Positions 25,812-55,366 of a stretch of DNA of 64,000 nt are shown one piece after another. The stretch's first letter is position 1. Each line of letters starts with the position of its first letter. Source of the DNA: Acidobacteriota bacterium (GTDB taxonomy: Bacteria; Acidobacteriota; Thermoanaerobaculia; Multivoradales; J023); assembly GCA_029263395.1 (NCBI GenBank), contig JAJCXO010000036.1:1638-65637 (forward strand), read 5' to 3'. Made by a program: the position numbers and the translations under genes. The notes below the pieces were generated by a model that worked only from the letters and a program-made list of their open reading frames with translations, was not told where the DNA came from and made no database searches.

Positions 25812-25818
25812 ACGGATT

Positions 25819-25844: not shown

Positions 25845-25851
25845 CGCAGAC

Positions 25852-32378: not shown

Positions 32379-33983
32379 TTAGCCCAAGTCTTCTCTGAGG
32401 GCCGTCCGGTTGATCTTGCCGCTGCCGGTGCGCGGCAGTTCACCCCGAATCTCGATCCGCGACGGCACGGCATAAACCGACAAACGTTTTGCTGCGCCGC
32501 GCCTCAGGGCGTTGGCGTCAACCCTAGACCCTTCACGCAACAGCACCGCCGCAAAAATCGTCACTTGGCCTTCTTCGTCACGCAGGTCGACTGCGGCAGC
32601 TTCGGCAACGTCGGGCAACGCATTGAGCACAGCTTCCACTTCGTCGAGCTCGACACGATAGCCGCGGACTTTGACTAGGCGATCCCGGCGCCCCAGGAAA
32701 ATCAGATGGCCATCACCACGGTCTCGCACCAGATCGCCGGTGCGGTAGAAGACCTTTTCGAAGTCGGTAAATAGAACCTGGCGAAAGAACGCTTGTTGGT
32801 TGAGATCGGGACGCGCCCAATAGCCGCGCATCATGGTGGGAGCCCGAATCAGCAATTCGCCAGGTTCACCGGGCTCTACCGTGCGGTCCTCGCCATCAAC
32901 GATCAAACCTTCCGCACCGGGCCAGACCGGACCGATCGGGATCGACTGCTCGCGGTCGAAGTCGTCAGGGAGATGGTAGGCGGTACATTGGTTGACCTCG
33001 GCGGGGCCGTAGGAGTTCGAAAAACGAGCGTTCGGCCACAGCTCGGCCAGCCGCGCCAGATGTTTGGGGGCAAAAGGCTCGCCGCCGAAAAGCACCCAAC
33101 GCAGGCTGCTCAGATCACGGTCTTCGATCCCCCCCTGCTCGAGCAGCTGGATCAGCGCCAGCGGGACCGAGTACCAGAAGGTCAGCTGCTCCTGCTCGAT
33201 CAGCTCCGCCAGGCTGCGCGGGAACATGGTGACTTCCTCGGGAATAATCACGGTGGTTGCGCCACACAGCGGGCCGGTGAGGTATTCGAAGGTCGACATG
33301 TCGAAGTGCAACGGCGAGTGGTTGCCGAGTCGATCCGTAGGCATCACGCCGTACTCGCGGGCTGACAGCCGGGCATACGCAAGACCGCTGGCGTGAGTGT
33401 GCATCAATCCCTTGGGCACTCCGGTCGAACCCGAGGTATACATGATGTACGCCAGGTCTTGTTCGACCAGCTGGACCGCGGGGTCGACTCGCTGCACGGG
33501 GTCGACTCGCTGCACGGCCTCGACTACCGCATCGACGGCCTGCCAGGCAGTAAACGAGATCTTCGATTCGGCGGCAACGTTGGTGGGCGCGTCTGCTCCA
33601 ATGACATGTTGGAGCTCCGGCACATCCACCGCCACCCGGGCCACCTTACGGGCGTGCGACGGGTCGGTGATGAGATGCCGAATGCCACAGTCTTCGACGA
33701 TGAACTGCACCCGCGCCGGCGGTGCGGTCGGATCGATCGGTACGTAGGCAGCCCCTGCCTTGAGGATGCCATAAAGCGCCACCGGCAGCTCGAGGCATTT
33801 GTTCATGTAGATGCCGACGCGGTCGTGGGGGGCCACCCCCTGCTCTACCAGCACGTTGGCCAGGCGGTTGGCACGGTCCACCAGTTCGGCATAACTCAGG
33901 CTGCATCGCGCAAAACGGAACGCCTCGCGCTCAGGGTTGCGGTCTGCCGCCTCGTCGATCGAGTGATGGAGCAGAAAGCCCAC
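32379..33983 (-). CDS. stand-alone amino-acid adenylation enzyme (AMP-binding, DltA-like)
   Basis: A-domain core motifs are present: YIMYTSGSTGVPKG, NSYGPAEV, YRTGDLV, GRRDRLVKVRGYRVELDEVE and GSGKINR. Confidence 0.8.
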   Translation of the reverse strand: MGFLLHHSIDEAADRNPEREAFRFARCSLSYAELVDRANRLANVLVEQGVAPHDRVGIYMNKCLELPVALYGILKAGAAYVPIDPTAPPARVQFIVEDCGIRHLITDPSHARKVARVAVDVPELQHVIGADAPTNVAAESKISFTAWQAVDAVVEAVQRVDPVQRVDPAVQLVEQDLAYIMYTSGSTGVPKGLMHTHASGLAYARLSAREYGVMPTDRLGNHSPLHFDMSTFEYLTGPLCGATTVIIPEEVTMFPRSLAELIEQEQLTFWYSVPLALIQLLEQGGIEDRDLSSLRWVLFGGEPFAPKHLARLAELWPNARFSNSYGPAEVNQCTAYHLPDDFDREQSIPIGPVWPGAEGLIVDGEDRTVEPGEPGELLIRAPTMMRGYWARPDLNQQAFFRQVLFTDFEKVFYRTGDLVRDRGDGHLIFLGRRDRLVKVRGYRVELDEVEAVLNALPDVAEAAAVDLRDEEGQVTIFAAVLLREGSRVDANALRRGAAKRLSVYAVPSRIEIRGELPRTGSGKINRTALREDLG

Positions 33984-34010
33984 GGGTTCTCGCGAGGTTT
34001 GAGGGGTGGA

Positions 34011-35162
34011 TTAGAGGCCGAGCAGGCTGGTGATGAGGCTGCGCTGGATATCCGAGGTGCCAGCGTAGATGACTCCACCGATCGAGTCGCGCAGTTGCCG
34101 TTCGACGCCGTGTTCCTCGAGATAACCCCGCGCCCCGTGGATTCGTACCGCGTCGGTCGCACATGCCAGCAGGGCTTCGGAAATATGCAGATTGGCCATC
34201 GCACATTCAATCCCGGCGTCTTCTTCTGCGTCTTTCATCGCCGCAACCTTGTACATCAGCAGGCGTGACGTCTCGAGTCGCAGACGCATGTCAGCGATGC
34301 GATTCGACACCGATTGGAAGTTGCCGATCGGCTGGCCAAACTGTCGACGCTCCTTGGCATATTTCAAACAGCGCTCGAACAGATGCTGCATCGCCCCGAG
34401 GTGGCCGGCGTGAATGAAGGCCCGCTCCCAGGAAATCGTCTGGGTAAACAGGCTCATGCCGATGCCTTCGCCACCGAGCAGATGTTCATCAGGAACAAAA
34501 CAATCCTCGAAGAGGAGGTCGCCCATCGGATTGGTGCGGGTACCAGTTTTGGCCCGCGGCTCACTCCGGGAGCAGCCGGGGCTGCTGGTTTCGACCAGAA
34601 ACGCGGAGACGCCCCATTTGCCAGACTCCGGGTCGGAGTTGGCGAGGACCAGCGCCAGATCTGCCACCGGCGCCATGCCGATATACATCTTGCGACCGTT
34701 GAGCAGATATCCGCCGTCTGTTTTGGTGGCAGTGGTCTGCAGACTCAAGGCGTCGGATCCTGAGGTTTCCTCGCTGACGCCGTGGCAGCCGATCCACTCG
34801 CCGGAACAGAGTCGTGGCAAAAATTTCTGCTTCTGCTCTTCGTTGCCGTAGATCAAAATCGGCTCTTGCACGCTCCAAGTCTGGCCACCAACCCCCAGGG
34901 TCAGACCGTTGTCGCGGCAACCGTAACCCAACGCCTCCAGGATCAAAACTGTGGTGACGGCGTCCAAGCCTTGGCCGCCATACTCGACGGGAATGTGGCT
35001 ACCCAAGATGCCCTGGGCGCCACAACGGTGCCAGTCCTCCCGCGGAAAGGTACTGGTCCGGTCGTGGTCGCGCAGCTGAGAACCGAGCTCGCTACGGGCG
35101 AACTCGAGCGTCTGCTCTCGGCGGGTTAACTGCTCTTCGTCGAAAGCAGGAGTCATAGTCAC
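34011..35162 (-). CDS. acyl-CoA dehydrogenase family protein
   Basis: The 383-aa protein has typical ACAD blocks: GCHGVSEETSGSD, YIGMAPVADL, the FQSVSNRIADM region and IYAGTSDIQ. Confidence 0.8.
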   Translation of the reverse strand: MTMTPAFDEEQLTRREQTLEFARSELGSQLRDHDRTSTFPREDWHRCGAQGILGSHIPVEYGGQGLDAVTTVLILEALGYGCRDNGLTLGVGGQTWSVQEPILIYGNEEQKQKFLPRLCSGEWIGCHGVSEETSGSDALSLQTTATKTDGGYLLNGRKMYIGMAPVADLALVLANSDPESGKWGVSAFLVETSSPGCSRSEPRAKTGTRTNPMGDLLFEDCFVPDEHLLGGEGIGMSLFTQTISWERAFIHAGHLGAMQHLFERCLKYAKERRQFGQPIGNFQSVSNRIADMRLRLETSRLLMYKVAAMKDAEEDAGIECAMANLHISEALLACATDAVRIHGARGYLEEHGVERQLRDSIGGVIYAGTSDIQRSLITSLLGL

Positions 35163-35267
35163 CTTTATATTTTAACATTCGTTGCCTGATCGAGCCTAGA
35201 CTGAATCGGACCCGATACAGTTGGCGAAGACACACTAAACAACCGGCAGACTTTGTGTCGGCCCGCG

Positions 35268-38200
35268 ATGTATTCACAGTTGGAGTTGCTATTGGACGTT
35301 CAGACAGAGCAGGAAACACCGCTGGCCCACAACCAGTTAGCGATCTGGATCGGGCAACAGCTGCATCGGGACAGTCCGCTCTACAACATGACGTTCGCTT
35401 GGATTTTCCAAGTAGATGTTCGCACGGATCTCTTTCAGCAAGCCTGGCAACGGGTCGCCGATGGCAGCGATGCCCTCAGGACCCAGATCGTGGAACGCGA
35501 CGGCGTGGGCCTGCGACGGATCAGCCCAGGAGGCAGCTGCCTCACGACGGTACTCGACTTACCACCCGATAGCGACAGCAACCCGGAAGCACACTTCCTC
35601 CGCTGGTGCCGCGAGCGCTGCGCTCGCCCCCTGAACTACGGCGACCAACTGGTCGACAGCGTGCTGGTCGAGCTCGGGGAGGGCAAAACAGGCTGGTATC
35701 TGAACCTGCATCATCTGATCACCGACGCGTCATCGACCGTCCTGCTCTACCGCCAAGTGGCGGCGGAGTATGCCGCATTGATCGACGGCAAGGCTCCGAT
35801 TCCGGTGCTCTATGACTACTATCCGACGTTGGCCAATCTGGCAGCCAAGACGCGGCCGTCGGACACCGCCCGCCAGCACTGGGCCGACCGGCTAAAGCGC
35901 CAGGATCGGTTGATTCCGTTGTACGGTCGTCAGGCCGAGCCGGTGGGGACGGCCAGTACCCGCTTAACCCTACAACTCGACCCGCAGCGCACGCGAGCAC
36001 TCGATCGGCTGTGCGCCGAAACCGGTTTCGCCAGCCTGTCGCGCAAGATGTCGCGTTTCGCTTTGTTTGCGACGCTGCTGCTGAGCTGGCTCCACCGGGT
36101 CAGCGGGCAGGCGGCTCTGGGTTTCGACGCACCGGTGAGCGGCCGCCCGACTGCCAAGTCCAAACGGGCTCTTGGCCTCTTCATCGAGATGTTCCCGTTC
36201 GCCGTGACGGTCGAGCCACAGGATACCTTCAGGACGCTCGGCGCCAAGTGCCTGGCGGAGGCTGAGCTTTTCCTGAGCCACGCCTTGCCTGGAACAAGCT
36301 CCCCCTCCGGTGCGGCCGCCAGCAACGTCGTGCTCAACTTCTTCCCCGACACTTTTGGCGACTTCGCTGGGACCCCGGCCGCGGTCGAGTGGGTCCATCC
36401 CGGTCACGGTGACAGCGTGCACGCATTGCGCCTCCAGGTTCACGACTTCGCCGGTTCGGGTGGCACCACTCTACATTTCGACTTCAATGATCGGGCGCTA
36501 TCGGATCGCCTGCGGCGTCGAAGTCTTCGGCACTTCGAGAGGATCGTCACGGCGCTGCTCGACGATGTGGATGGGCGCATTGCGGCCGTCGACATGCTGA
36601 CCGACGACGAAACCTTGGCCTTGGCAGAGCTGAATGCGACGGCGGGTTCACCACTGCCGGATCAAACGGTGGTCGAGATGTTCCTGGCACAGGCCGCAAC
36701 CAATCCCCAACGGATCGCGTTGCGTCAAGGTGAGGCAGAGCTATCGTTTGAGGATCTCCGTAGTCAGGCCGAAGCCTTGGCAGCCACGCTGGTTCAGGCT
36801 GGTATTACGCCAGGGGACGCTATTGCGCCAGGGGACGGTGCTACGCCAGGGGGCCGTGTCGGAATACTTTCCCGACGTTCGATGGATACCGTCGTCGCTA
36901 TCCTGGCGACGCTGCTGGCCCGCGCAGCGTACGTCCCGATCGACCCGGCGTATCCCCGGCAGCGCAGAGACCATATTCTCCATGACTCCGCGGCCTGTCT
37001 GGTGCTGGTCGGCGAGGACGTAGAAGCCCCTGCGGCGTCAGGCACAGCCTCGCGTAACCCGAACCCCGACGTCCCCGTCCTCTCGATCCGCGAGGGAATC
37101 CGCGCCGGACGGGATACACCATTCAACCGACCGCACCCAACGCTCGACGATCTCGCCTACGTGCTCTACACCTCCGGCTCTACCGGCCAACCCAAGGGGG
37201 TTTTGATCGAACATGGCGGACTTGCAGCCTATTTGCAGTGGGCGGAGCGCCAGTACGTGCGCGGAGACCGGCTGCGATTCCCGCTGTTCACCTCGCTGTC
37301 GTTCGACTTGACCGTCACCAGCCTATTTCTGCCGTTGATCACCGGCGGGGTGCTGGAGATTTATCCTGAGCCGGCCGGCCCCGTTGACTCGGCGCTGATG
37401 GACGTCGTCCGAGCCAACGCTGTCGACTTCATCAAACTCACCCCGTCCCATCTTTCGCTGCTGCTGCAAATGAACCCGACCCCATCGCAGCTCCGGCGTA
37501 TGGTGATCGGTGGCGAGGATCTGAAGACGCAACTGGCGACCGAAGTCAGCGCTCGGTTTGGAAATTCACTCGAGATCACCAACGAATACGGGCCGACGGA
37601 AGCGGTTGTGGGCTGTATTGCCCACCGTTATGACCCCGCGGTCGACGATGATCTTCGGGACCCTAGTCCTCGGGTTCCGATCGGGGTGCCGGCGGATCAT
37701 GTCCAGATCGAGATCCTGAATGCGGCACAATCGCCGGTACCGGAGGGGGTTCCAGGGGAACTGTGGATCTCTCGTTACGGTCTGGCCCGTGGCTATCAAG
37801 GCCTCGACGAGTTGACGGCTGAACGGTTTCAGGCCCGCCCGCAGCACAGCAACGGGCGGCGCTACCGGACGGGTGATCGGGTGCGCATGGTGAGTCCAAA
37901 CAAGCTTGAATATTTGGGACGTCTCGATCGGCAGTTGAAGATTTCAGGCTTTCGCGTCGAGCCGGCAGAGATCGAAAACGCCTTGTTGTCGCTGCCCGGA
38001 ATCGAGCAGTGCGCGGTGATCGCACGCCGGCGCACCGCCTCCCCGTCCAAGGAGCGCTTGGACCGTGCAGACGGTCAGCCGAGCAGTGACGGCCTGACGG
38101 GCACGGCAGACCTGACGAGCACTGTAGCCCTGTCGAGAACGGCAGACCCGACGTGTATTCGGTGCGGCCTACCGTCGAGCCACCCTCGTGCAGTCTTCGA

Positions 38201-39692
38201 TCGCCAGGGAGTCTGCAGCGTCTGTCGTTCCTATGAGTCGATCAAGGAGCACGCTCGAGGCTATTTCAAGACCATGGACGACCTACGCGAGATATTCGCC
38301 AGGTCTGCCCAGGCAAAAACTAGCAGCCCACCGTACGATTGCATGATGCTGCTCAGCGGCGGTAAAGACAGCACCTACGCGCTGTGTCGGTTGGTCGAGA
38401 TGGGCTTATCGGTTTATGCCTTCAGCCTCGACAACGGCTTTATCTCCGAAGAAGCCAAAGACAACATTCGCCGAGTGACCGGACAACTCGGCGTGCCGGT
38501 TGAACTCGCCACAACACCGGCGATGAACGCCATCTTCAGGGACAGCCTGACCCGTTTTGCCAACGTCTGCCAGGGCTGTTTCAAGACGATCTACACCTTG
38601 AGTACCCAACGGGCTCATGCGTTGGGGATTCCGATCATCGTCACCGGGCTGTCGCGCGGGCAAATGTTCGAAACCCGACTGACCGAGGAGATGTTTCGCG
38701 ACGGTCGGTGTAGCCCCGAAGAGGTTGACGCCGCGGTGCTGGCGGCGCGCAAGGTTTACCACCGACTCGACGACGAGGTCTCCCGTTCGCTGGATGTACG
38801 GATCTTTCAGGACGATCAAATCTTCGAGCAGATCCAGTATGTCGACTTCTATCGCTATTGTGATGTCGGCCTGAGTGAGCTCCATACCTATCTCCAGCGT
38901 AAGGTGTCCTGGGTACGCCCGCGGGATACTGGACGCTCGACCAATTGCCTGATCAACGATGTCGGGATTTATGTCCACAACCGACAGCTCGGTTACCACA
39001 ACTATGCCCTGCCCTATAGCTGGGACGTGCGCATGGGCCACAAAACCCGGGACGAAGCCCACGACGAGCTCAATGACAGCATCGACGTCGGGTTCGTGCG
39101 CAAAACGTTGGCCGAGATCGGCAGCGATGTCGAAGGCTTGACCGCCGACGGCAGCCAGCCACAGCTGGTCGCGTTTTATGTGGTTTCAAAAGATGCCGTT
39201 TCGAAAGACGCCGTTTCGAAAGGCCTGTCCGATGACGAGCTTCGTCGACAGCTTGCCGAGCGTCTGCCGGCACCTTTCATACCAGCTCATCTCCAGCGGA
39301 TCGACACCATCCCACTAACTGCCCACGGCAAAGTTGATGAACAAGCCTTACCAGCCATCGAACACATTCGGCTCACCGAGGCACAGTACCGGCCGCCCGA
39401 AGGCCCGGTTGAGGAATATCTCGCCAACGTCTGGCAAGAACAGCTCGGCACTACCCGGGTCGGCGCCGACGATAGCTTCTTTCAGCTCGGCGGTACGTCG
39501 CTCGGCGCGATGGAGGTCATGATCCGCCTATGCCAGGAATACGACATCGACCTGCCATTGGAAACGTTGTTCTCGCATCCGACCCTCGGCAAGCTGGCCC
39601 GCGTCGCCGAAGACCGGATCATGGCGGACATCGATGCCTTGACCGAGGACGAACAGCAAAACCTAATCGTTGAAGGCGAGCTTCTCGGTTGA
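35268..39692 (+). CDS. NRPS module C-A-T whose A domain is interrupted by a Zn-ribbon/PP-loop ATPase domain
   Basis: The C domain has HHLITDA. The A domain has YVLYTSGSTGQPKG, NEYGPTEA, YRTGDRV and GRLDRQLKISGFRVEPAEIE, then a ~377-aa insert, then LVAFYV, LPAPFIPA and AHGKVD. The T domain has FFQLGGTSL. The ORF opens with TTG at 35253, and the first ATG is at 35268. Confidence 0.85.
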   Translation: MYSQLELLLDVQTEQETPLAHNQLAIWIGQQLHRDSPLYNMTFAWIFQVDVRTDLFQQAWQRVADGSDALRTQIVERDGVGLRRISPGGSCLTTVLDLPPDSDSNPEAHFLRWCRERCARPLNYGDQLVDSVLVELGEGKTGWYLNLHHLITDASSTVLLYRQVAAEYAALIDGKAPIPVLYDYYPTLANLAAKTRPSDTARQHWADRLKRQDRLIPLYGRQAEPVGTASTRLTLQLDPQRTRALDRLCAETGFASLSRKMSRFALFATLLLSWLHRVSGQAALGFDAPVSGRPTAKSKRALGLFIEMFPFAVTVEPQDTFRTLGAKCLAEAELFLSHALPGTSSPSGAAASNVVLNFFPDTFGDFAGTPAAVEWVHPGHGDSVHALRLQVHDFAGSGGTTLHFDFNDRALSDRLRRRSLRHFERIVTALLDDVDGRIAAVDMLTDDETLALAELNATAGSPLPDQTVVEMFLAQAATNPQRIALRQGEAELSFEDLRSQAEALAATLVQAGITPGDAIAPGDGATPGGRVGILSRRSMDTVVAILATLLARAAYVPIDPAYPRQRRDHILHDSAACLVLVGEDVEAPAASGTASRNPNPDVPVLSIREGIRAGRDTPFNRPHPTLDDLAYVLYTSGSTGQPKGVLIEHGGLAAYLQWAERQYVRGDRLRFPLFTSLSFDLTVTSLFLPLITGGVLEIYPEPAGPVDSALMDVVRANAVDFIKLTPSHLSLLLQMNPTPSQLRRMVIGGEDLKTQLATEVSARFGNSLEITNEYGPTEAVVGCIAHRYDPAVDDDLRDPSPRVPIGVPADHVQIEILNAAQSPVPEGVPGELWISRYGLARGYQGLDELTAERFQARPQHSNGRRYRTGDRVRMVSPNKLEYLGRLDRQLKISGFRVEPAEIENALLSLPGIEQCAVIARRRTASPSKERLDRADGQPSSDGLTGTADLTSTVALSRTADPTCIRCGLPSSHPRAVFDRQGVCSVCRSYESIKEHARGYFKTMDDLREIFARSAQAKTSSPPYDCMMLLSGGKDSTYALCRLVEMGLSVYAFSLDNGFISEEAKDNIRRVTGQLGVPVELATTPAMNAIFRDSLTRFANVCQGCFKTIYTLSTQRAHALGIPIIVTGLSRGQMFETRLTEEMFRDGRCSPEEVDAAVLAARKVYHRLDDEVSRSLDVRIFQDDQIFEQIQYVDFYRYCDVGLSELHTYLQRKVSWVRPRDTGRSTNCLINDVGIYVHNRQLGYHNYALPYSWDVRMGHKTRDEAHDELNDSIDVGFVRKTLAEIGSDVEGLTADGSQPQLVAFYVVSKDAVSKDAVSKGLSDDELRRQLAERLPAPFIPAHLQRIDTIPLTAHGKVDEQALPAIEHIRLTEAQYRPPEGPVEEYLANVWQEQLGTTRVGADDSFFQLGGTSLGAMEVMIRLCQEYDIDLPLETLFSHPTLGKLARVAEDRIMADIDALTEDEQQNLIVEGELLG
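36804..36857 (+). repeat. in-frame 18-bp x 3 tandem repeat inside the A domain (ITPGDA/IAPGDG/ATPGGR)
   Basis: ATTACGCCAGGGGACGCT ATTGCGCCAGGGGACGGT GCTACGCCAGGGGGCCGT. Confidence 0.8.
38030..39160 (+). other. inserted domain: CxxC...CxxC Zn ribbon plus PP-loop (SGGKDS) N-type ATP pyrophosphatase, PseA/WbpG/WbuX-like
   Basis: CIRCGLPSSHPRAVFDRQGVCSVCRSY lies at 38154-38234. YDCMMLLSGGKDSTYAL contains SGGKDS at 38355-38372. Confidence 0.65.
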
Positions 39693-39699
39693 GGCTGAC

Positions 39700-40242: not shown

Positions 40243-40336
40243 TTCGGTTCATCCAACGGTTATCGACAACCCTGCGAGAGTCGTCATCTGATGAGGCTAG
40301 TCTAGTTGAAAGCAGAAACCGGTTCGCGCCTCCCGG

Positions 40337-40500: not shown

Positions 40501-40521
40501 ATTGGACGGGATCTAGTCTAG

Positions 40522-44786: not shown

Positions 44787-44805
44787 GGTGTTGTCAGTGC
44801 TCTAC

Positions 44806-47800: not shown

Positions 47801-49026
47801 GTTTGAAAGATGGGGTGCCGATCGTGTTGGCGGGTCGGCGACAACTCCTCGACCAGCAGATCGAAGGGGACTGAGCCATGGGTCAGAAAGTCTCTCATTC
47901 GGCGACTGAAGGCGCGGATTGCCTGGTCAACGGGCCGCTGTTCGTCGATCAGCGCACAGATCACCACCGGATTCAGGAAATACCCAATCATTGCGGCGGT
48001 GGCGGGATGCGAGCGTTGCGACACCGGTGTGGCAAAGGCGACGTTTCGCCCCTCCGTGTAACGATGTAGGAGCAATCGGAACAGGAAGGCAAACACGATG
48101 AATGGCGTCGTCTCGGTGGCGGCGGCAACTTGTCGGATCTGCCGTTGCTCCTCGGCTCCGAGAAGCCGAGTCATCAGACGCCCTGGTGGCACAACCTCGT
48201 CTAGCCCTTTGGCCGTCGTGCTGGCCACACGTTCGAAAGGAAGCATCGAAGCCTCGGGCATGGGCTCTAGCTGGTGTTGCCAATAGGCGAGCTCCGTTGG
48301 CCGTGATGGTGCCGCTTGCCCGGCCAGCCAAAACACGTAGTCGTCATATTGCGGTAGCTCTGCAACCTCGGTCGATCGGCCGTCATACTCCGCGGCCAAT
48401 TCCTGCCAGAGGAAGCCGAGCGACCTCTCGTCAGCGAGGATGTGATGGAGGACGAGGACCAACAGGCGCTCCCCAGACGTCGCCTCGATCAGCACACATC
48501 GGATCAGTGGCCCTGTTTCGAGATCGAAGGGCCTGCGGACCTCAGCGACAGCTCTGGCCAAAACTTTGTGCTGCCCTGGCGCCCGCGATTCGACAGTGAT
48601 CGTCTCCACCGTCAACGGACGATGGGGATTCATGACCTGCAACACTCGGTCCTGTTGCGCACGAAACGTTGACCGCAACAGGCGATGACGCGCCACAACG
48701 TGATTCAGACTGCGCTCGAACCCGGACACGTCGAAAGAGCCCGAGACGCGAAACGCGCTGGCGAGATTGTAAGCGGGTGAGGCCGGTTCCAGCTGGTGCA
48801 GCAGCCAAAGGCTACGCTGTAGCTCGCCGAGGACTGCGTCCGAAGCTTCAGGCCGGGACGGAAGCGCTGCAGTGCCTTGTTGAGTCACCGCACCAGATGG
48901 ACCGGAGCCTTGCTGCGTCCGTGAGCGTGCTGCAGCCCGCTTCAATCGGATAGCCTGCTGCAGCCGCTCGGTGCGGCTAGCTTGGTTTTCGGTGGTCACT
49001 TCAAGTCCTTCGAAAGGATTGGCCAT
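44806..49026 (-). CDS. NRPS module C-A-T-TE
   Basis: The C domain has HHILADERS. The A domain has AYILYTSGSTGRPKG, NEYGPTEA, YRTGDRL, GRVDDQIKLRGFRIEPGEIE, LPDFMVPA and LPNGKVDR. The T domain has FFQLGGHSL. The TE domain has MAGYSFGA. Confidence 0.9.
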   Translation of the reverse strand: MANPFEGLEVTTENQASRTERLQQAIRLKRAAARSRTQQGSGPSGAVTQQGTAALPSRPEASDAVLGELQRSLWLLHQLEPASPAYNLASAFRVSGSFDVSGFERSLNHVVARHRLLRSTFRAQQDRVLQVMNPHRPLTVETITVESRAPGQHKVLARAVAEVRRPFDLETGPLIRCVLIEATSGERLLVLVLHHILADERSLGFLWQELAAEYDGRSTEVAELPQYDDYVFWLAGQAAPSRPTELAYWQHQLEPMPEASMLPFERVASTTAKGLDEVVPPGRLMTRLLGAEEQRQIRQVAAATETTPFIVFAFLFRLLLHRYTEGRNVAFATPVSQRSHPATAAMIGYFLNPVVICALIDEQRPVDQAIRAFSRRMRDFLTHGSVPFDLLVEELSPTRQHDRHPIFQTMFVYQETPPSPEMGGVRLEPITLDLGESKFDLTLFVTERSVTERPETEGAPSLEIAVEYRTDRFDEVWMQNLLGHYQTLIEHLADDLERQTAEVPMLPLEEAGVLRDWAQGAPTTETEDSFLPQQIRAQALRLPRASAVISGDEHWSYAELARIARCIARELTHRGVQPGDRVGLFLDRSPWMIAGLLGSHWAGAAYVPLDPAYPSARNRDVLEDAEVVAVLTSSALHDRLPTQVPFIIDVDTLAVGSLEDKSTEGILGPDLQAKHPAYILYTSGSTGRPKGVVITHGNLSVSNGARSQVYNTPPKRFLLLSSIAFDSSVAGLFWTLATGGALVIPTDEEAGDPRRLAQLIIEAEVTSLLCVPSLYSHLLDMGTEQLQGLDTVIVAGESCPPSLVEAHFQQLPQTRLYNEYGPTEATVWATVHEIKPEDAGRSVAIGGPIPGVRVDVLDGMGRRVPAGIPGQGWISGPTLAEGYWRRQDLTDERFLRRPIEPGPRAEPDVRMYRTGDRLCWTDDGRLLFLGRVDDQIKLRGFRIEPGEIEAVLLELPEVEKAAVVVREGTQLVAFVEVPVTVPPNTVPTATVAESWRERLAQRLPDFMVPARLVELAELPTLPNGKVDRNRLRKMVLDPEATLVEGLQTSDPPVLDEREQALISLWEGLLGRPGIRSSDNFFQLGGHSLLVVEMTTAIERDFGAVLAPAEVFQHPTVRELAQRIEQRSDSGAPTYSHLFPIQPGGRQTPFLFCVPHFFSEMVATRFRGERPVYGLRGVSLRPEGNRGRWRTMRELGDELVQEVCRRFPNQAIIMAGYSFGATMAVEAVRLMEERGIPVERLILIAPMPVDFYRFGPCRLQIDGLRQPVEELSLGQAIQRFARDNHPLTRRAYQRLWRYLAIQPWRRLLCWIGRLRGLAGLPLTAQILHADVRLERFRLHSHYQPGILRTPTVIFNAREPATDAAATWRPYFQGPFTVHQTPDPHLDEGSVRTAKEQILHHLSDLGQP

Positions 49027-49067
49027 CCAGACGCATTCTGTTGACGATTCTAATGAGTCTCGTCCAA

Positions 49068-49232
49068 GACCGTGGTTGTCCGGTCGCCCCCGGTGGACTG
49101 CGCGCGCAGCTGCGTAACTCGTCTCGGCGCTTTAGTGTCCGCCAAACCTATTGGTTACAATAGTTTGGAGAGCGACGGTCTATTCTCTTGCTCATACATA
49201 CTCGCTGCGTGCTCGCTCCACAGGGGGCTCCC
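49068..49232 (+). repeat. copy 2 of the ~165-bp conserved intergenic element
   Basis: See copy 1. The element contains the palindrome CTGCGCGCGCAG, the dyad CCAAAC-C-TATTG-GTTA-CAATA-GTTTGG and a TACAAT hexamer. Confidence 0.9.
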
Positions 49233-49354
49233 TCCCCGAGCCGGAAATGGCGAATCTGGGGATGGCTCAAATTTGATGGTGACTGGTCCTATCGGAACGC
49301 TTGGCGATGTTACGATCACCGACCGATGCGATGAGCGCCCCGCCACACACCCCA

Positions 49355-50530
49355 ATGCGAATTCTAGAGATCGAAACCTTCGGTCGCGGTGGACTCACGC
49401 ATTATGCCTACAATCTGTCGAGGGCGCTGGCCGAGCGTGGCCATCAGGTCACCATGGTGACCGCTGCTGCCTTTGAGCTCGAAGGGCGACCCGACCAGCC
49501 CAACGTCGAGATCATCACAACGATTGCACGCGGCAGCCATCGGCTGAGACGCCTACCATGGGTGCAGAAGATATTCCGCAAGTTCGAAGCCATCTTCGAC
49601 GCCCTGGCCGTGACCAGGTTGGCGCACCGTCTCCGCCCAGACGTGATTCATATCCACTGCACCAATCCGATTGTGCTGGTCTACCTCAGTGCCTTGCAGA
49701 GACTGGGACACCCCCTGGTTGCCACTGCCCACGTCGTGACACCCCATGAGCGGATCCGCTGGCAAAAGGTCATCTACCGACGCATCCACAAGCTCGGCCA
49801 ACTGATCATCGCCCACTCACAATTCGACCAGCAACGTTTGCTGCAGGAATTCTCCGTCGACGCGAAGCGGGTGACGGTGATTCCCCATGGCGAATACAGT
49901 TTCTTCGAGGGCGGCGGGGAAAAGACCGATCGCAGAGCGGCTCGGGAAAGCCTTGGCCTCGAACCACAGGATAAGGTTGCATTGTTCTTCGGCTACATCC
50001 GAGAGTACAAAGGCCTCGATGTGCTGTTCGAAGCCTGGTCCACGGTTGCGGAGGCGCAGCCAGCAGCACGCCTCGTCGTCGCTGGCGATCCAGTTCAACT
50101 CGGTGCGGAGCGACGTGACGAGTTGGAGCGCTGGGCGACAGACCTGGGGGCAATCCATCACTTCGGCTACATCCCTTTTTCTGAGGTAGCACAGTACTTC
50201 GCGGCCGCCGACGTGCTTGTCATGCCGTATCGCCACATCAGCCAGTCCGGCGTGCTGTACCTCGCGCTGTCGCTCGGCGTACCCGTCGTCGCCACCCGGG
50301 TGGGAGCACTGCCGGAGATGTTGCAAGATGGCGACAGCGCACTCCTGGTACAGCCGGAATCACCCCGTGCTCTCGCACAAGCTTTGATCCGGGCACTCGG
50401 TGATGCCAGCCTGCGACTTCGACTAGCCCAGGGCGGCCTACGAGTTGCAGAAGAACACTCCTGGCCGTCGATCGCTGAACAGACCGAAGGTGCATTCAGA
50501 AAGCTCGTCGATCAGCGAGACAACACCTGA
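49355..50530 (+). CDS. family 4 (group 1) glycosyltransferase
   Basis: MRILEIETFGRGGLTHYAYNLSRALAERGHQV is a typical GT4 N-terminus, so I prefer ATG 49355 to the ORF-track start at 49301. The C-terminal region has PYRHISQSGVLYLALSLGVPVVAT. Confidence 0.8.
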   Translation: MRILEIETFGRGGLTHYAYNLSRALAERGHQVTMVTAAAFELEGRPDQPNVEIITTIARGSHRLRRLPWVQKIFRKFEAIFDALAVTRLAHRLRPDVIHIHCTNPIVLVYLSALQRLGHPLVATAHVVTPHERIRWQKVIYRRIHKLGQLIIAHSQFDQQRLLQEFSVDAKRVTVIPHGEYSFFEGGGEKTDRRAARESLGLEPQDKVALFFGYIREYKGLDVLFEAWSTVAEAQPAARLVVAGDPVQLGAERRDELERWATDLGAIHHFGYIPFSEVAQYFAAADVLVMPYRHISQSGVLYLALSLGVPVVATRVGALPEMLQDGDSALLVQPESPRALAQALIRALGDASLRLRLAQGGLRVAEEHSWPSIAEQTEGAFRKLVDQRDNT

Positions 50531-52056
50531 AGCAATCGCCGTTCGATACCCGCCGGCCGCCCCTCAGATCGCCAGATCGTGTATTGGATGGTGCAGAAGA
50601 CCACACCGCCCACGCCGATCTTAGTCACCAAAGCCAGCCAGGAGCCGGCAGCTGAGAACAACTCGAGGGATTGGATCCCGCCGAGCGCCATGACAGCAAT
50701 TACCATCAGCATGGCAGCAATCAGGGGACGTCTGAGCTGCCGCAGAATATCGCCCAGCGATATATCGAGGGTCCGTTTCAGCAACCAGACGTTCAAGTAC
50801 GAGTAGAAAAACCCGGCCAAAACGATGCTACCGATCGCCCCTACCAACCCGAAGAAGATCGTGCCGACGATGAACGCCGGAATGTGGATCAAGGCGTAGA
50901 CAACGCTGACCTGAAACAGCAGCCGGGTTCTTCCCAAAGCCATGACGCACGGCAACGTCATCGACAGTGTACCGCGCAGCCCTAGAAACGGCACCAGAAT
51001 CGTCAGCAACAACACAATCGGCTGCCACTGCTCACCAAGCGCCAAAGGCACCACGTCGTTGGCGACCAGAGCGAAGCCAAAACCGGCAGGTAGGCTGAGA
51101 CTGCCGAGCACATTGACCGACTCACAGACCACCCGTCGCAACCTTGCTGGGTCGTCCGCAATTTCGCTGAAGGACGGAAACAGAATCCGCTGCAGCGGGC
51201 TCACCAACTCCCTGGTGGGCAGGACTCCGACTCGCTGGGTCATGAAGTACAGCCCGGCGTCGGCGATGCCGAGTAAACGGCCGACGATGATCTTGTCGGT
51301 TTCCATCGACAACGTCGTGACGATGGTCGTCAACGACATCCAGCCACTGAAGGCAAAAATCTCCGAGGATCGAGCAAACGATAGGCCGGGACGGTAGGGC
51401 CGCAGGGCATAACTCAACAGCAAGCTAGCCAGCGAGCCAACGAGGATCCCAATCACCAGCGCCCAATGCGTGCGATAAAAGACGGCGATGACCAAGGTCA
51501 CGCAGAACGCGACGAGTTTGGCGCCGAGAGTCAGCCAGGCCAGTTTGGAATAGACCAGGTTGCGCTCGAACGTGACAAACCGGGGATTGGACAAGCCCTT
51601 CAGCAGCGGACTCCAGGCCAACACGAACAACACCGCAGCAATCCGAGCATCGGTCAAGAGCACAGCGATCAAGACCATGACCAGTGCTGACAGGAGTCCA
51701 CGCAGGGCGGACAACGTCCACGCGCTGTTATAAAGCGAGCGATCTACGTCGTGTTGGCTCCCCTCCTTTGTGGGGACATCTTCCCGGATTCGAATCAACG
51801 CTTTGTTGACATCGAAGTCACTGAGGCCATCGACGATAGCCACGATGGAGGCGGCAATGGCTACCAAGCCAAAGTCTTCCGGGGCCAGCAGACGCGCCAA
51901 CACGACAATCGAGATCAGATCGAGTAAACGCTCCCCCCAGCGGTAGGTGTAAAGCCAGCCAGCGCCAGTCGCCACCCGTTTGGCGGTATCGCGTTCGACA
52001 GTACCGCGTTCGACAGTGTCGCGTTTGGCAGTATCGCGTTCGGCGGTATCAGTCAT
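50512..52056 (-). CDS. polysaccharide biosynthesis/export protein (Wzx-like flippase, MOP superfamily)
   Basis: There are about 12-14 TM segments. ISIVVLARLLAPEDFGLVAIA is typical of Polysacc_synt-type flippases. The N-terminal tail has pentapeptide repeats. Confidence 0.7.
   Translation of the reverse strand: MTDTAERDTAKRDTVERGTVERDTAKRVATGAGWLYTYRWGERLLDLISIVVLARLLAPEDFGLVAIAASIVAIVDGLSDFDVNKALIRIREDVPTKEGSQHDVDRSLYNSAWTLSALRGLLSALVMVLIAVLLTDARIAAVLFVLAWSPLLKGLSNPRFVTFERNLVYSKLAWLTLGAKLVAFCVTLVIAVFYRTHWALVIGILVGSLASLLLSYALRPYRPGLSFARSSEIFAFSGWMSLTTIVTTLSMETDKIIVGRLLGIADAGLYFMTQRVGVLPTRELVSPLQRILFPSFSEIADDPARLRRVVCESVNVLGSLSLPAGFGFALVANDVVPLALGEQWQPIVLLLTILVPFLGLRGTLSMTLPCVMALGRTRLLFQVSVVYALIHIPAFIVGTIFFGLVGAIGSIVLAGFFYSYLNVWLLKRTLDISLGDILRQLRRPLIAAMLMVIAVMALGGIQSLELFSAAGSWLALVTKIGVGGVVFCTIQYTIWRSEGRPAGIERRLLQVLSR
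51979..52053 (-). repeat. in-frame 15-bp x 5 tandem repeat at the 5' end of the flippase gene
   Basis: Plus strand: TTTGGCGGTATCGCG, TTCGACAGTACCGCG, TTCGACAGTGTCGCG, TTTGGCAGTATCGCG, TTCGGCGGTATCAGT. The protein reads TDTAE RDTAK RDTVE RGTVE RDTAK. Confidence 0.85.
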
Positions 52057-53414
52057 GGGCTGGTCTGTTGACGAGCTTGATCGAGCAGCCGCTCGACGGC
52101 CCGCTCCGCAACTCGATCCTCAGAATAGGCCGCGTAACGTGTGCACAGCTGCTGAACGTTGCGGGCAAACCGTGGCTCTTTCAGCAGGCGCTCGATCTGC
52201 TCACCGATAGCTTGTGAGCTATCTCGTTGACGATCACCGGCGATACCGAGTTGGTGGTGCTCTACCCGCGAGGTGTTTCCAGCCATGTCCGTGTGATGGC
52301 CACAGTAGATGAGCATCGGAACGCCAGAGAGCACACATTCATCGATTGTGTTGATGCCGCCATGCGTGACCGCAACGTCAGCATGTCGCAACACCTCGAG
52401 TTGGGGCACCCAGTCGAAGGCAGTGATATGTGCCGGCAACTGACCCAACTCTGCCAGATCGACACGGCCACCGAGGGATATCACAAGATCCCAATCATCG
52501 CGAGCTTGCACCGCCTCGATCAACCGCCGAAGGAGGCCTAGATCGGTCGAAAAGAAAGACCCGAACCCGGCATAAATCAACGCCCGTTGGCTCTTTCGAC
52601 GACGCTCGAAGAGCATGTCCAATTTGGCATGGACGGTGTCGTCAACGCGTGGGTCGTTGCGGGTTTCGAGCAACATCGGTCCGACATAACGCACCCGTTC
52701 AGGCGGACGATGGGGAAATTCAAACTCCTGGGCATGGAGGCTCAACACCGGTAACCGTCGGTAGGTCAGTGGCATGAGCCATTGGCTATTATCGGTTTCG
52801 CGACGAAAGTCGAAACCGTTGTCCCGTGCCAACTGGCGCAGCAGCGACAGGCGATCACACCCGACACGTTGCACCTTGTGCATCAGCGCTCTGCGCCGCT
52901 TCTCGAGCCAAAGCGCTTGCCATAAACACCATATCCCGATCTGGGTGCCCTTCCAGCCGACACCGGGACGCACCAGGTAGTGTGGAGGAGGCAAACCGGG
53001 TTGCCGCCAGATCGAGACGAAACTGTTCAACAGGGCCATCGGTACACCGCAAGCTGCTACCGCAATGATGTGCTCGTGCATCTCTCCGTCAATCAGGATG
53101 AGATCGGGGGCCCTCGAATGGACCGTTCTGAGTAAGCCGGAGACAGCTAGTGAATCCAAGGCTCGTGTCCGTCGAGCCCTCAGATGACGTAACCGCTGCA
53201 CCTGTCCGGTCTTGGTGTCGGTGGCAAGAAACTCGTCATAGCGGCTGGTCTCCAGAGCCATGAACTCGAGACCCTGTGCCTCGACGGTTGCGCGAGCCTC
53301 GGAGAAACTGGCGTAGGTCACCCGGTGCCCAGCCAGCGCTAAACGGCGAGCCAACTCGACCCCCGCGAAGAGTACGCCAGGTACCGTGCTCGTCACGCAG
53401 AAGATCGTCGCCAT
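52053..53414 (-). CDS. GT1-family (MGT/UDP-glycosyltransferase-like) glycosyltransferase
   Basis: The C-terminal donor-binding block THGGINTIDECVLSGVPMLIYCGHHTDMAGNTSRVE is present. A 4-nt overlap (ATGA) with the downstream flippase gene suggests translational coupling. Confidence 0.65.
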   Translation of the reverse strand: MATIFCVTSTVPGVLFAGVELARRLALAGHRVTYASFSEARATVEAQGLEFMALETSRYDEFLATDTKTGQVQRLRHLRARRTRALDSLAVSGLLRTVHSRAPDLILIDGEMHEHIIAVAACGVPMALLNSFVSIWRQPGLPPPHYLVRPGVGWKGTQIGIWCLWQALWLEKRRRALMHKVQRVGCDRLSLLRQLARDNGFDFRRETDNSQWLMPLTYRRLPVLSLHAQEFEFPHRPPERVRYVGPMLLETRNDPRVDDTVHAKLDMLFERRRKSQRALIYAGFGSFFSTDLGLLRRLIEAVQARDDWDLVISLGGRVDLAELGQLPAHITAFDWVPQLEVLRHADVAVTHGGINTIDECVLSGVPMLIYCGHHTDMAGNTSRVEHHQLGIAGDRQRDSSQAIGEQIERLLKEPRFARNVQQLCTRYAAYSEDRVAERAVERLLDQARQQTSP

Positions 53415-53417
53415 ACT

Positions 53418-54197
53418 TCAATCGGGCGGATAGCCGAGTTGCTCAACCAACCCGGCATACCTGGTATCAAAAGCCTGCTTCACTCGGGGCGTAAAGTGCT
53501 TGCGCCACTGCCCGGAGGCCGGATTTCGCACATGAGGATCGGATGCAATCTTCCGGAACGAGTAGCGTTTGACGAACCAATGACCCAGGGTTCGCTCGAG
53601 GGACGACAAGTCATAAAAAGTGAACAGCTCGTCAAAAACTCGTGCCTCGTCACCCAGGATCTCTTCATAGCGGTAAGTCACGATGTCCGGGTGCTGAGAC
53701 GGCCAGTTAGCCATCGACTCGAAGTGGTATCGCCTAAACTCCAACTCTGCCAAGAGCCCGTCTTCTTCGGGGATCGATTGCAGGTAGCTCGCGAAGGAAG
53801 AGCCACCAGCTGAGCGAGCCCCTCCTTGGGCTTGTAAGCCCTCGGGCAAACAACCATTGGCAAAGTACCAATCCTCAGCGGTCGGCGCCTCGATGTTCAC
53901 CCACGCTTCGGCGCCGCGCCGGTGATAGTGGTAACCGGAGACGACAAGGTCTCGCGGATCGCGGACAAAACGTGACAGTCGGAACTGCCCCAACCGACTC
54001 AACTCCAGGGTTCGATTGTTGACCGAGGCGATGCGAAGCCGCTGGAAACTGTCGTAGAAGTCGTCGAGATGACTGTTGAAGTGCTGATAGCCCCTACTCC
54101 ACGGCAAGCAGCGGTTGAACACCGCATGCATGACGCGTTTGTAATAGACCGTCAAACACTTGTGGTACGAACAGTGGATGAGGTGAGTGTCGGTCAT
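53418..54197 (-). CDS. sulfotransferase-like protein
   Basis: VRDPRDLVVSGYHYH is a 3'-PB-like block. The N-terminal IHCSYHKCLTVYY occupies the position of the PAPS loop but is non-canonical. Confidence 0.45.
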   Translation of the reverse strand: MTDTHLIHCSYHKCLTVYYKRVMHAVFNRCLPWSRGYQHFNSHLDDFYDSFQRLRIASVNNRTLELSRLGQFRLSRFVRDPRDLVVSGYHYHRRGAEAWVNIEAPTAEDWYFANGCLPEGLQAQGGARSAGGSSFASYLQSIPEEDGLLAELEFRRYHFESMANWPSQHPDIVTYRYEEILGDEARVFDELFTFYDLSSLERTLGHWFVKRYSFRKIASDPHVRNPASGQWRKHFTPRVKQAFDTRYAGLVEQLGYPPD

Positions 54198-54235
54198 GCC
54201 GAGTCAGGAATCCCAGATCACGTTGGCCCCGACTG

Positions 54236-55366
54236 CTAACGGCGCCACTTCTGTCCCAAGTGCACCATCAATCCGGCCCCAAAGGCGACGCTGCTATAGA
54301 GATAGTAGAGCACGTGGACGGGAATGACTTGGATCACGAACCATAGATGTTTCGCCTTGTACAAGAACAGATAGAAACGTCGGTTGAGGACCACGATACC
54401 GAACGTCAAAGCCAACGCCAACAGCAGCCACAACTGGCTCAGAGCAACAACCAGCCCAGCGGACATCACCGCGCTCAGGCGTTGGCTGTGGCGCAAATTG
54501 AGGTCATTGGGAATCTTGCCTTGGCGCAGGAGCAACAATGTCCAAGGAATACCCCGATTCTTGATATCGGTCAGGATCATCAGCCAAAAGGTCCAGCGCT
54601 TCATGTGCTTGACCTGAATGCTCTTGACGAGCTCGACGCGGTGCCCGGCATCACGCAAGCGCGAGCCGAGCTCAATATCTTCAATGCTGGCGTTGGAATA
54701 GGTGGTATCGAATCCACCCAACCCGAGAAACACGGATTTTTTGATCGCCCCGCAGCCACTCCAAAAACTGAAGGCGTCTTGTTTGCCGTCCTGGTGCACG
54801 AAGTGATGCAGCAGATTGCGGTACTGAGAAAGAAAGCCAGGGGCTCCAGGGCTGGCATCATAGGAGCCGAAGAACGCGTCGACAGCGGGATCGATGAGAA
54901 ACTTCGCCGCCACCAATCCGAGAGTGCCAGGCTGCACACAGACATCCGCATCGAGGAAGAACAGAGTCGTATGCTGGGCAGCTTCAGCGCCACGGTTGCG
55001 GGCGGCCGCCGGCCCTGAACGGGTGTCTTGACGGATCAGGCAAACATCGTGTCGACGGGCGACTTCAGCTGTGTCGTCAGTGGAGGCATCGTCCACCACG
55101 ATAATCTCGTAGTCGACATATTCTGAGGATTCCAAGGCCAGCAAACAGAGCTCGAGGTTGGCAGGATCGTTGCGAACCGGAATAACAACCGACAGCGAGA
55201 CCCGCTCCGCAGCCTTGGCAACTCCATATGGGCCGGTCTTCCGAACACCAGCTTCAGCTCGCGACGTGTTATCCCGGGACGAGCTATCCCGGGACGTCGT
55301 GAGCGCCTCGTCGGATCCATCACGGTCCTGGAACGCCGCCGCTGGCAACTGAATATTGGAGCTCAC
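54236..55366 (-). CDS. family 2 glycosyltransferase with C-terminal TM segments
   Basis: LSVVIPVRNDPANLELCLLAL...IIVVDDASTDDT...FLDADV is a GT2 signature. The C-terminus has 3-4 TM helices. Confidence 0.8.
   Translation of the reverse strand: MSSNIQLPAAAFQDRDGSDEALTTSRDSSSRDNTSRAEAGVRKTGPYGVAKAAERVSLSVVIPVRNDPANLELCLLALESSEYVDYEIIVVDDASTDDTAEVARRHDVCLIRQDTRSGPAAARNRGAEAAQHTTLFFLDADVCVQPGTLGLVAAKFLIDPAVDAFFGSYDASPGAPGFLSQYRNLLHHFVHQDGKQDAFSFWSGCGAIKKSVFLGLGGFDTTYSNASIEDIELGSRLRDAGHRVELVKSIQVKHMKRWTFWLMILTDIKNRGIPWTLLLLRQGKIPNDLNLRHSQRLSAVMSAGLVVALSQLWLLLALALTFGIVVLNRRFYLFLYKAKHLWFVIQVIPVHVLYYLYSSVAFGAGLMVHLGQKWRR

Follow-up and report, generated by a model that had tools for sequence, protein, structure and literature searches.

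A conserved Acidobacteriota gene cluster joins an AMDH-interrupted nonribosomal peptide synthetase line to glycosyl-, sulfo- and methyltransferase genes

Results

Gene content and conservation of the cluster

We analyzed a 64,000-nucleotide stretch of the Acidobacteriota contig JAJCXO010000036.1 (hereafter the window; GC content 60%), focusing on the region between positions 32379 and 55366. A preliminary description of this region had listed two nonribosomal peptide synthetase (NRPS) genes together with a free adenylation (A) domain, an acyl-CoA dehydrogenase (ACAD)-fold protein, several glycosyltransferases (GTs), two sulfotransferases (STs), a methyltransferase (MT) and a Wzx-like flippase. 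Mapping of open reading frames (ORFs) combined with Pfam and NCBIfam scans recovered every gene of that list at its place (Table 1); the GT-C fold enzyme and the Wzx-type protein are truly encoded in the locus, and the two 4-nt ATGA overlaps (43091–43094 and 52053–52056) are genuine. Both NRPS proteins begin with a condensation (C) domain, as had been described, NRPS1 having the architecture C-A-T (T, thiolation domain) and NRPS2 the architecture C-A-T-TE (TE, thioesterase). The locus is a single biosynthetic gene cluster whose core machinery is of a known kind, including an AMDH module of a type already described. Every enzyme type in it is known. What is new is the combination, to which no product is assigned: a proline-type starter, a modified asparagine (Asn*) and a histidine, alongside which the locus encodes a methyltransferase, a pair of sulfotransferases, a Wzx-type transporter and four or five glycosyltransferases.

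Table 1. Features of the cluster and of its left border, with positions in the window
Feature	Position	Strand	Basis or remark
3′ remnant of stand-alone carrier-protein gene, last ~24 codons and stop	29553–29630	+	tblastn, DNA alignment, profile hidden Markov model (HMM)
Duplicated MacB_PCD/FtsX permease, 802 aa	29640–32048	-	no adjacent ATPase gene; exactly between carrier remnant and free A gene
Five tandem copies of a 43-bp unit	32134–32356		between MacB/FtsX gene and 3′ end of free A gene
Stand-alone amino-acid adenylation enzyme, probably proline-type	32379–33983	-	TIGR01733 381 bits, above cut-off; specificity code DMFYVFSQCK
ACAD-fold flavin dehydrogenase, prolyl-carrier-protein dehydrogenase type (AnaB/RedW/PigA-like)	34011–35162	-	PDB and NCBIfam matches
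NRPS1, C-A-T, A domain interrupted by AMDH	35253–39692	+	Pfam, NCBIfam, motif map; Asn code DLTKMIEVGK
AMDH domain, aa 963–1290 of NRPS1	38139–39122	+	Zn-ribbon CIRC..GVCSVC and PP-loop SGGKDS
180-aa membrane-anchored protein	39700–40242	-	one N-terminal transmembrane (TM) segment; no Pfam/NCBIfam match
GT-C fold membrane glycosyltransferase	40522–42273	+	AlphaFold2 (AF2) and Foldseek; lineage-specific addition
GT2a glycosyltransferase, soluble	42255–43094	-	PF00535 104 bits; no TM segment
ST3, PAPS-type sulfotransferase	43091–44008	-	PF13469 96 bits; PRSGTT and RDG..S motifs
Class I SAM methyltransferase (MT)	44013–44786	-	PF13489, PF08241
NRPS2, C-A-T-TE	44806–49026	-	Pfam, motifs; His code DSALIAEVWK
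GT4 glycosyltransferase	49301–50530	+	PF13692, PF13439, PF00534; 56–67% homologues in relatives
PST/Wzx-type MOP family membrane transporter	50512–52056	-	PF13440 208 bits, PF01943 89 bits
GT1 glycosyltransferase (MGT/OleD-like), natural-product type	52053–53414	-	TIGR01426 121 bits
ST1, Sulfotransferase_1-type	53418–54197	-	PF00685 38 bits; RDPRDLVVS motif
GT2b glycosyltransferase with C-terminal hydrophobic helices	54236–55366	-	PF00535 100 bits; TM segments aa 297–330 and beyond
PAPS, 3′-phosphoadenosine-5′-phosphosulfate; SAM, S-adenosylmethionine.

The nearest related loci (numbered with the prefix L) all lie in metagenome-assembled genomes (MAGs) of Acidobacteriota. The order GT2a-ST3-MT-NRPS2-GT4-Wzx-GT1-ST1-GT2b is shared by L003, L005–L009, L012, L014/L081, L083, L084 and L085, where L083 belongs to the same MAG as L001, L084 is a marine TARA scaffold and L085 lies on the same contig as L004. 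The whole set is found in unchanged order in at least 12 other Acidobacteriota genomes, with protein identities of 50–78%, from soil to marine TARA samples. Because the same genes recur in the same order in these genomes, their grouping is not due to chance, and since it is the whole set that keeps its order, the glycan-type genes make up a single unit with those of the NRPS line. NRPS, glycosyl-, sulfo- and methyltransferase and flippase genes are thus co-conserved and interleaved in relatives, as the preliminary description had required of its idea, and no characterized cluster was matched by the locus as a whole. That an NRPS cluster and an unrelated glycan-modification locus merely lie side by side is highly improbable. 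The genome of L004/L085, in which about 12 kb of unrelated genes separate the NRPS1 block from the NRPS2/GT block, and the lack of ST3 and MT in L006 and L012 would fit such a reading, but GT2a, ST3 and MT are enclosed by NRPS1 and NRPS2 in an operon with 4-nt overlaps, GT4-Wzx-GT1-ST1-GT2b come after NRPS2, and this interleaved arrangement has been retained across all those genomes. GT2b marks the right border of the cluster: it is the last cluster gene in both L083 and L084, and the outer flanks vary, with PPDK following in L083 as in the window and MacB in L084.

An AMDH domain interrupts the adenylation domain of NRPS1

The A domain of NRPS1 carries an insert of ~330 aa between its A8 motif (GRLDRQLKISGFRVEPAEIE, aa 889–908) and its A9 motif (LPAPFIP, aa 1338). 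BLASTP comparison of the insert with the AMDH domain of CysH (sequence from the supplement of PMC7966384) gave 51% identity over 325 aa (E 2e-124) with the SGGKDS motif aligned. The Asn specificity codes agree as well, with DLTKMIEVG in NRPS1, DLTKLLEVG in CysH and DLTKLVEVG in AlbIV, and all 80 homologous loci that were fetched, from which all neighbor and code counts given here are drawn, carry an Asn code of the form DLTKxxEVG; the codes were read by motif anchoring, with no predictor. Experiments in vitro and in vivo showed that the CysH AMDH domain dehydrates T-bound L-Asn to β-cyano-L-alanine or isomerizes it to isoasparagine (PMC7966384). Judged by homology, the PP-loop insert of NRPS1 is an AMDH domain of the CysH/AlbIV type, that is, it makes an interrupted A domain of a known kind. 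We had also considered the insert as an amidine synthase (NASAT-like; NASAT, N-acetyl sugar amidotransferase) or a thioamide synthase (YcfA/TtuA/CtaC-like) acting on a peptide bond, candidates that were superseded by the 51% identity to AMDH.

The AF2 model of the insert (pLDDT 84.6) gave the Legionella NASAT 8WEX as best Foldseek match (E 9e-12, TM-score ~0.6), followed by YcfA and TtuA. NASAT enzymes are defined by a PP-loop motif SGGXDS and a Zn tetracysteine CXXCXn[GN]XCXXC (PMC10607449), and the insert carries both, as SGGKDS and as the tetracysteine. The insert is a relative of the NASAT family and not a member, since its score against the family model TIGR03573 (113.6 bits) falls under the cut-off (203.2) though 8WEX is structurally nearest. 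No usable structural template for AMDH was reported in PMC7966384, relative to which the modelled assignment of AMDH, with its Zn tetracysteine, to the fold family of the NASATs appears to be new. Such a placement in the NASAT/PP-loop fold family would support ATP-dependent O-adenylation of the carboxamide, for a reaction whose mechanism was called unknown in 2021.

Twenty-five orphan AMDH homologues, none of them linked to a product, have been listed before, including those of Algoriphagus halophilus, Pricia antarctica, Verrucomicrobiae DG1235 and Microvirga (PMC7966384); these four genomes fall among our loci L054, L066, L015 and L035. Literature searches found no product for AMDH-containing orphan clusters, and no report under interrupted adenylation domain with PP-loop, or under nonribosomal with N-acetyl sugar amidotransferase. 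As a side observation, the NRPS genes of L081, L085, L005, L043 and L054, from long-read MAGs, are split by apparent frameshifts that are probably sequencing errors; because of such splitting, the protein search with the insert returned only fragments of up to 572 aa.

A probable proline-type starter cassette

The best single-domain PDB match of the free A enzyme is PltF, an L-proline-[carrier protein] ligase (6O6E, 269 bits). The top PDB match of the ACAD-fold protein is the prolyl-ACP dehydrogenase AnaB (4IRN, 362 bits), 85 bits ahead of the next match and best ordinary acyl-CoA dehydrogenase (277 bits), and its top NCBIfam matches are RedW (373 bits, cut-off 650) and PigA (362 bits, cut-off 500), both under cut-off. 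In the homologous loci, a free A gene lies near NRPS1 in 54 cases and a dehydrogenase gene in 37, often next to a gene for ornithine cyclodeaminase (OCD, a proline-forming enzyme family), which adjoins the pair in 21 loci; an intact gene for a small PP-binding carrier protein accompanies the pair in 34–51 loci. On account of the PltF and AnaB/RedW/PigA matches and of the carrier protein and OCD in relatives, the pair is, by sequence similarity, probably a proline-type loading and oxidation cassette and not a source of a fatty-acyl starter. The acyl starter that the preliminary description had suggested is accordingly replaced by a probable prolyl-carrier-protein type pair. A lipopeptide reading, with the free A enzyme as a fatty acyl-AMP ligase (FAAL) and the ACAD-fold protein as an acyl-CoA dehydrogenase, was ruled out by the above-cut-off TIGR01733 score and the AnaB/RedW/PigA-like dehydrogenase.

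A second type of free A enzyme (~42% identity; genes at ~5400–6990) was noticed in L004–L009, L012 and L014/L081. Its code, CFFYVFVVC, has Cys at position 235, where Asp is usual. The partner dehydrogenase shares ~40% identity, and HupE separates its gene from that of the A enzyme. The starter of these loci may be no ordinary α-amino acid.

NRPS2 and the predicted assembly line

NRPS2 contains the motifs HHILADE (HHxxxD), LGGHSL with the T-domain serine and GYSFGA with the GxSxG nucleophile of the TE, and its code DSALIAEVWK is among the His-activating signatures in PMC12283262. NRPS1 and NRPS2 are consecutive modules of one line that is predicted to run from a Pro-derived starter through Asn* to His and the TE. 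In the chemistry predicted from the domains, the stand-alone A enzyme would load proline on a small carrier protein, and the AnaB/RedW-like flavoenzyme would oxidize the prolyl thioester to its dehydroprolyl or pyrrole-2-carboxyl form. NRPS1 would then use its C domain to couple this starter to Asn on the NRPS1 T domain, where the AMDH domain, by analogy with its CysH homologue, from which the activity is known, may activate the side-chain amide with ATP and give β-cyano-alanine or isoasparagine. NRPS2 would append histidine and its TE release the product. The aglycone predicted in this way, pyrrole-2-carbonyl-(β-cyano-Ala)-His, would have the formula C15H16N6O4 and a monoisotopic mass of 344.123, with a difference of +18.011 for the Asn/isoAsn form and of +2.016 for the dehydroprolyl form; besides sugar units such as hexoses, each sulfate would contribute +79.957 and each methyl +14.016. 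The release of a short dipeptidyl unit by a TE, as proposed in the preliminary description, stands as far as the TE goes; the unit itself is better read as an N-acylated (tripeptide-like) dipeptide.

Glycosyltransferases, tailoring enzymes and the transporter

The nearest PDB entries to GT1 are the natural-product glycosyltransferases Kcn28, OleD/OleI, CalG1-4 and YjiC. In 17 loci, spread over several phyla, a GT1 homologue comes directly after NRPS1 or NRPS2. Homologues of GT2a (54–69%) occupy the same position in 12 loci. The MOP transporter has about 12 or more hydrophobic segments and 62–74% homologues in relatives, and scores 186 bits against the NCBIfam flippase model NF007773, under the cut-off of 273.

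The GT-C protein had no match in the PDB by sequence, and its Pfam match to PMT_2 (23 bits) is below threshold. Its AF2 model (pLDDT 80) retrieved STT3, ArnT, ALG12, PglB, AglB, PMT and Emb by Foldseek (E ~1e-7, TM-score ~0.5), the top 40 matches all being GT-C enzymes, and TM1 is followed by a YGDEFF motif, in keeping with the acidic motif that GT-C enzymes carry in their first extracytoplasmic loop. Only 8 homologues were found among 5.8 billion proteins, and the gene is limited to the window, L001 and L002. In L001 and L002, and in no other locus, homologues of the 180-aa protein (55% and 49%) stand beside the GT-C gene.

The ORF of ST3 is open to a TTG at 44119; its start is probably the GTG at 44008. 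ST3 is conserved in at least 8 loci. ST1 is unusually well conserved: 584 homologues were found, the best 120 of the 584 being 66–78% identical and coming from Acidobacteriota, Planctomycetota and many metagenomes, and its position is unchanged in L083, L084 and L085. ST1 was seen to have no canonical N-terminal PKxGTTW PAPS loop, with only HKCLT at its N-terminus. Homologues of the methyltransferase (59–72%) directly follow NRPS2 in relatives.

Distribution of the core across phyla

Scanning one genome per species, we found the AMDH-type insert in more than 542 genomes. The Pro-derived/Asn*/His core thus predicted is present in more than 540 species from about ten phyla. To this core, the Acidobacteriota loci add GT2a, GT2b, GT4, GT1, two sulfotransferases, a methyltransferase and a Wzx-like transporter. 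In the representative library, 572 clusters (50% identity) match at E < 1e-30; their proteins are typically 1370–1420 aa long with the insert at about residue 900. The code of the next module, DSALIAEVW, is invariant in ~45 loci from Acidobacteriota, Verrucomicrobiota, Cyanobacteria, Actinomycetota, Bacteroidota, Chloroflexota, Planctomycetota and Proteobacteria. Besides the starter genes, OCD and GT1, the recurrent neighbors include a HupE_UreJ_2 membrane protein (34–44 loci) and a TonB-dependent receptor (16 loci). The core can be compact, as in L015, which reads PPTase-HupE-CP-OCD-DH-A-NRPS1-NRPS2 (PPTase, phosphopantetheinyl transferase; CP, carrier protein; DH, dehydrogenase).

Orphan AMDH modules thereby gain a concrete context, a Pro-starter/Asn*/His-TE line with GT1, sulfotransferase and methyltransferase tailoring and metal-transport neighbors, from which product masses can be predicted and functions put to the test. 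Very few natural products are known from Acidobacteriota, whose soil and marine members commonly carry this cluster family.

State of the cluster in this genome

No complete carrier-protein gene was found in the window by motif scan, tblastn or profile HMMs; only a remnant is left. With the L003 carrier protein as tblastn query, the remnant matched at 67% identity over residues 63–86 only, DNA alignment places the beginning of carrier-gene homology near 29553, and a profile HMM built from 34 carrier proteins matched only positions 73–97 of 104 there and nothing else in the window. The stop codons of the carrier and free A genes, 5 bp apart in L003, are 2.7 kb apart here. The MacB/FtsX permease gene between them resembles an insertion into the cluster, and a similar permease sits at the cluster's other end in the TARA locus L084 (5928–8363). 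Each 43-bp unit of the adjoining repeat array contains a perfect palindrome, GATCAAGCA-N8-TGCTTGATC, which is confined to the array within the window (4 matches versus 0.05 expected); the array may act in termination, bind a protein or mark the scar of the insertion. HupE and OCD genes were not found anywhere in the 64-kb window with profile HMMs.

Because the carrier gene is truncated, the starter branch either needs a carrier from outside or is disabled; the carrier may be supplied from elsewhere, or the branch may be non-functional. One could go further and regard the cluster of this genome as a decaying or disabled copy that gives a starter-less altered product or none, the carrier gene having been cut down to its last 24 codons, the permease gene and repeats inserted between it and the free A gene, and HupE and OCD being absent from the window. 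We consider this somewhat unlikely: the remaining cluster genes are full-length ORFs with intact catalytic motifs, the free A and dehydrogenase genes are undisrupted and 75–77% identical to those of L003, the genome may hold a carrier-protein gene beyond the window, and a metagenome assembly artefact at the repeats is possible. The truncated carrier gene means that presence of the cluster does not equal production.

The predicted product

We propose, with a probability of roughly one half, that the product of the cluster is a small nonribosomal peptide that is subsequently glycosylated, sulfated and methylated. On this proposal, the OleD-like GT1 would attach the first sugar to the peptide and the GT4 and GT2 enzymes would lengthen the sugar chain, the two PAPS-type sulfotransferases and the SAM methyltransferase would decorate the product, and the PST/Wzx-type protein would carry it, or a lipid-linked sugar donor, over the inner membrane. 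The lineage-specific GT-C enzyme may contribute one more sugar in the periplasm, taken from a polyprenyl-phosphate donor. Cyanobacterial loci have GT1 inside the NRPS operon, where an Stf0-like sulfotransferase accompanies it in L022 and a methyltransferase in L031. A decorated small peptide is likelier than an envelope glycan built on a lipid carrier because GT1 is of the aglycone type and GT1, ST and MT genes recur in cyanobacterial NRPS operons.

A rival model that spells out the idea of the preliminary description pictures instead a sulfated, methylated oligosaccharide assembled on a polyprenyl carrier by the GT4/GT2 enzymes, flipped by Wzx and transferred by the GT-C enzyme. The NRPS peptide would be joined to this glycan, perhaps through N-acylation of an amino sugar, so that a glycoconjugate of the envelope or a secreted one results. 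The Wzx-type PST protein, the GT-C fold enzyme and GT2b with its C-terminal TM helices are indeed co-conserved with the NRPS genes, and in four Bacteroidota loci that lack the TE module, NRPS1-GT1 directly precede Wza, Wzc, NeuB, an epimerase and a CMP-sugar synthetase. Against it, a Pfam scan of the ORFs in the 64-kb window gave no priming phosphoglycosyl transferase, Wzy, Wzz/Wzc or outer-membrane polysaccharide export (OPX) protein, the GT-C gene lies outside the conserved set, NRPS2 terminates in a TE as lines with free products do, GT1 belongs to the aglycone type, and the cyanobacterial NRPS operons contain GT1, ST and MT genes without glycan machinery. The window also encodes no lipid-forming enzyme (FAAL, polyketide synthase (PKS) or acyltransferase), so that the term glycolipid is baseless. 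We keep from the earlier picture the flippase and the GT-C enzyme as possible parts of lipid-carrier assembly and export, drop the glycolipid, and judge an envelope glycoconjugate unlikely beside a decorated peptide.

Several points weigh against our proposal of a decorated peptide. Every chemical step is assigned by homology only, no member of the cluster family has a known product, and the dehydrogenase and the AMDH-like domain score under NCBIfam equivalog/subfamily cut-offs. The carrier protein, HupE and OCD genes are missing from the window, and the pathway may not run in this organism. The PST/Wzx protein, the GT2 with C-terminal TM helices and the GT-C enzyme are classical parts of lipid-carrier glycosylation, and four Saprospiraceae-type loci (L025, L039, L074 and L076) have NRPS1-GT1 followed by Wza, Wzc and nonulosonic-acid genes and no His/TE module. 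Finally, no Ni/Co, cobalamin or other riboswitches were found with Rfam in the window and seven related loci, which gave one tRNA only, so that no metal-responsive element backs the metal hint.

The downstream genes of those four loci (~11.4–21 kb) encode Wza-like, Wzc-like and NeuB proteins, a UDP-GlcNAc 2-epimerase and a CMP-sugar synthetase, with no His/TE module within 10 kb. The arrangement could reflect a link to a nonulosonic-acid polysaccharide, or adjacency only.

A metal-binding role of the product is suggested, speculatively, by the X-X-His core and the frequent HupE/UreJ-type and TonB-receptor neighbors; the core is found with a HupE/UreJ-type permease, and with a TonB receptor alongside in Bacteroidota. 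That the Pro-derived/β-cyano-Ala or isoAsn/His core defines an unrecognized class of X-X-His, ATCUN-like nitrogen-donor metallophores (for Ni, Co or Cu), of which the Acidobacteriota version is heavily glycosylated and sulfated, strikes us as rather unlikely. Alternatively, the peptide may cap a secreted sulfated glycan.

Genes flanking the cluster

The cluster is flanked by a Ser/Thr kinase gene with tetratricopeptide (TPR) repeats, the duplicated MacB/FtsX permease gene, a CarboxypepD_reg-TonB receptor gene and PPDK, neighbors that, like the GC content, fit a genome of the Acidobacteriota kind. To the left, a 3344-aa ORF (15777–25811, plus strand) with LVIVD repeats, many Kelch/galactose-oxidase-like repeats (GlxA-like match), DUF11 repeats, DUF7507 and a GEVED domain probably encodes a giant surface protein; long antisense ORFs over it (e.g. 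22842–26228) are probably spurious. Beside this giant gene lie genes for two Ser/Thr kinase-TPR proteins of 861 and 1126 aa (regions 11879–15307 and 25852–29232) and for an extracytoplasmic function (ECF) sigma factor (14510–15307). Further left are a sigma-54 activator (8777–10381), a caspase-domain protein (5617–8460) and a FadL-like outer-membrane protein (3906–5549).

Comparison with known systems

NRPS1 resembles CysH of cystobactamid and AlbIV of albicidin biosynthesis in its A8–A9 insert, its SGGKD(S) motif, its DLTKxxEVG-type Asn code and the T domain that comes next. Both of these are free-standing A(AMDH)-T proteins supplying para-aminobenzoate assembly lines, whereas here a C-A(AMDH)-T protein stands between a Pro-type starter and a His module, and unlike the CysH system the cluster has no CysJ-type hydroxylase. 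The NASAT enzymes (WbuX/WbpG/PseA; 8WEX) share only 18% identity with the insert, which, unlike them, is embedded in an NRPS and predicted to act on a carrier-bound Asn side chain, eliminating water or isomerizing instead of adding ammonia.

The starter branch has a stand-alone A enzyme and an ACAD-fold dehydrogenase in common with type II prolyl-carrier-protein pathways (PltF/PltL/PltE, RedM/RedO/RedW, PigI/PigG/PigA and AnaC/AnaD/AnaB), and relatives of the cluster likewise encode the small carrier protein, of which only a remnant is left in this window. The present starter would go to an NRPS C domain, in contrast to a PKS or a halogenase in those pathways, and two-electron (pyrroline) and four-electron (pyrrole) oxidation are indistinguishable here, with scores under the NCBIfam equivalog cut-offs.

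Like Wzx/Wzy-dependent O-antigen and exopolysaccharide loci, the cluster has a PST/Wzx-type protein with GT2 and GT4 enzymes; what sets it apart is that the window lacks genes for a priming transferase, Wzy, Wzz/Wzc and OPX and that NRPS and glycosyltransferase genes are interleaved. The glycopeptidolipid (GPL) loci of mycobacteria combine NRPS genes with GT1-type glycosyltransferases and methyltransferases and give a surface glycoconjugate with sulfated variants. GPLs use a fatty-acyl starter (FAAL/PKS) and MmpL export, unlike the present cluster with its proline-type starter, lack of lipid genes and PST-type transporter.

The aeruginosins, the glycopeptides of the teicoplanin/A47934 type, ramoplanin and mannopeptimycin are short NRPS products tailored by GT1-type glycosyltransferases, PAPS sulfotransferases and methyltransferases, and some of these systems have an extracytoplasmic GT-C mannosyltransferase that draws on a polyprenyl-phosphate sugar. 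Compared with them, the present cluster has a different and much shorter peptide core, four to five glycosyltransferases together with a Wzx-type transporter, and Acidobacteriota as hosts.

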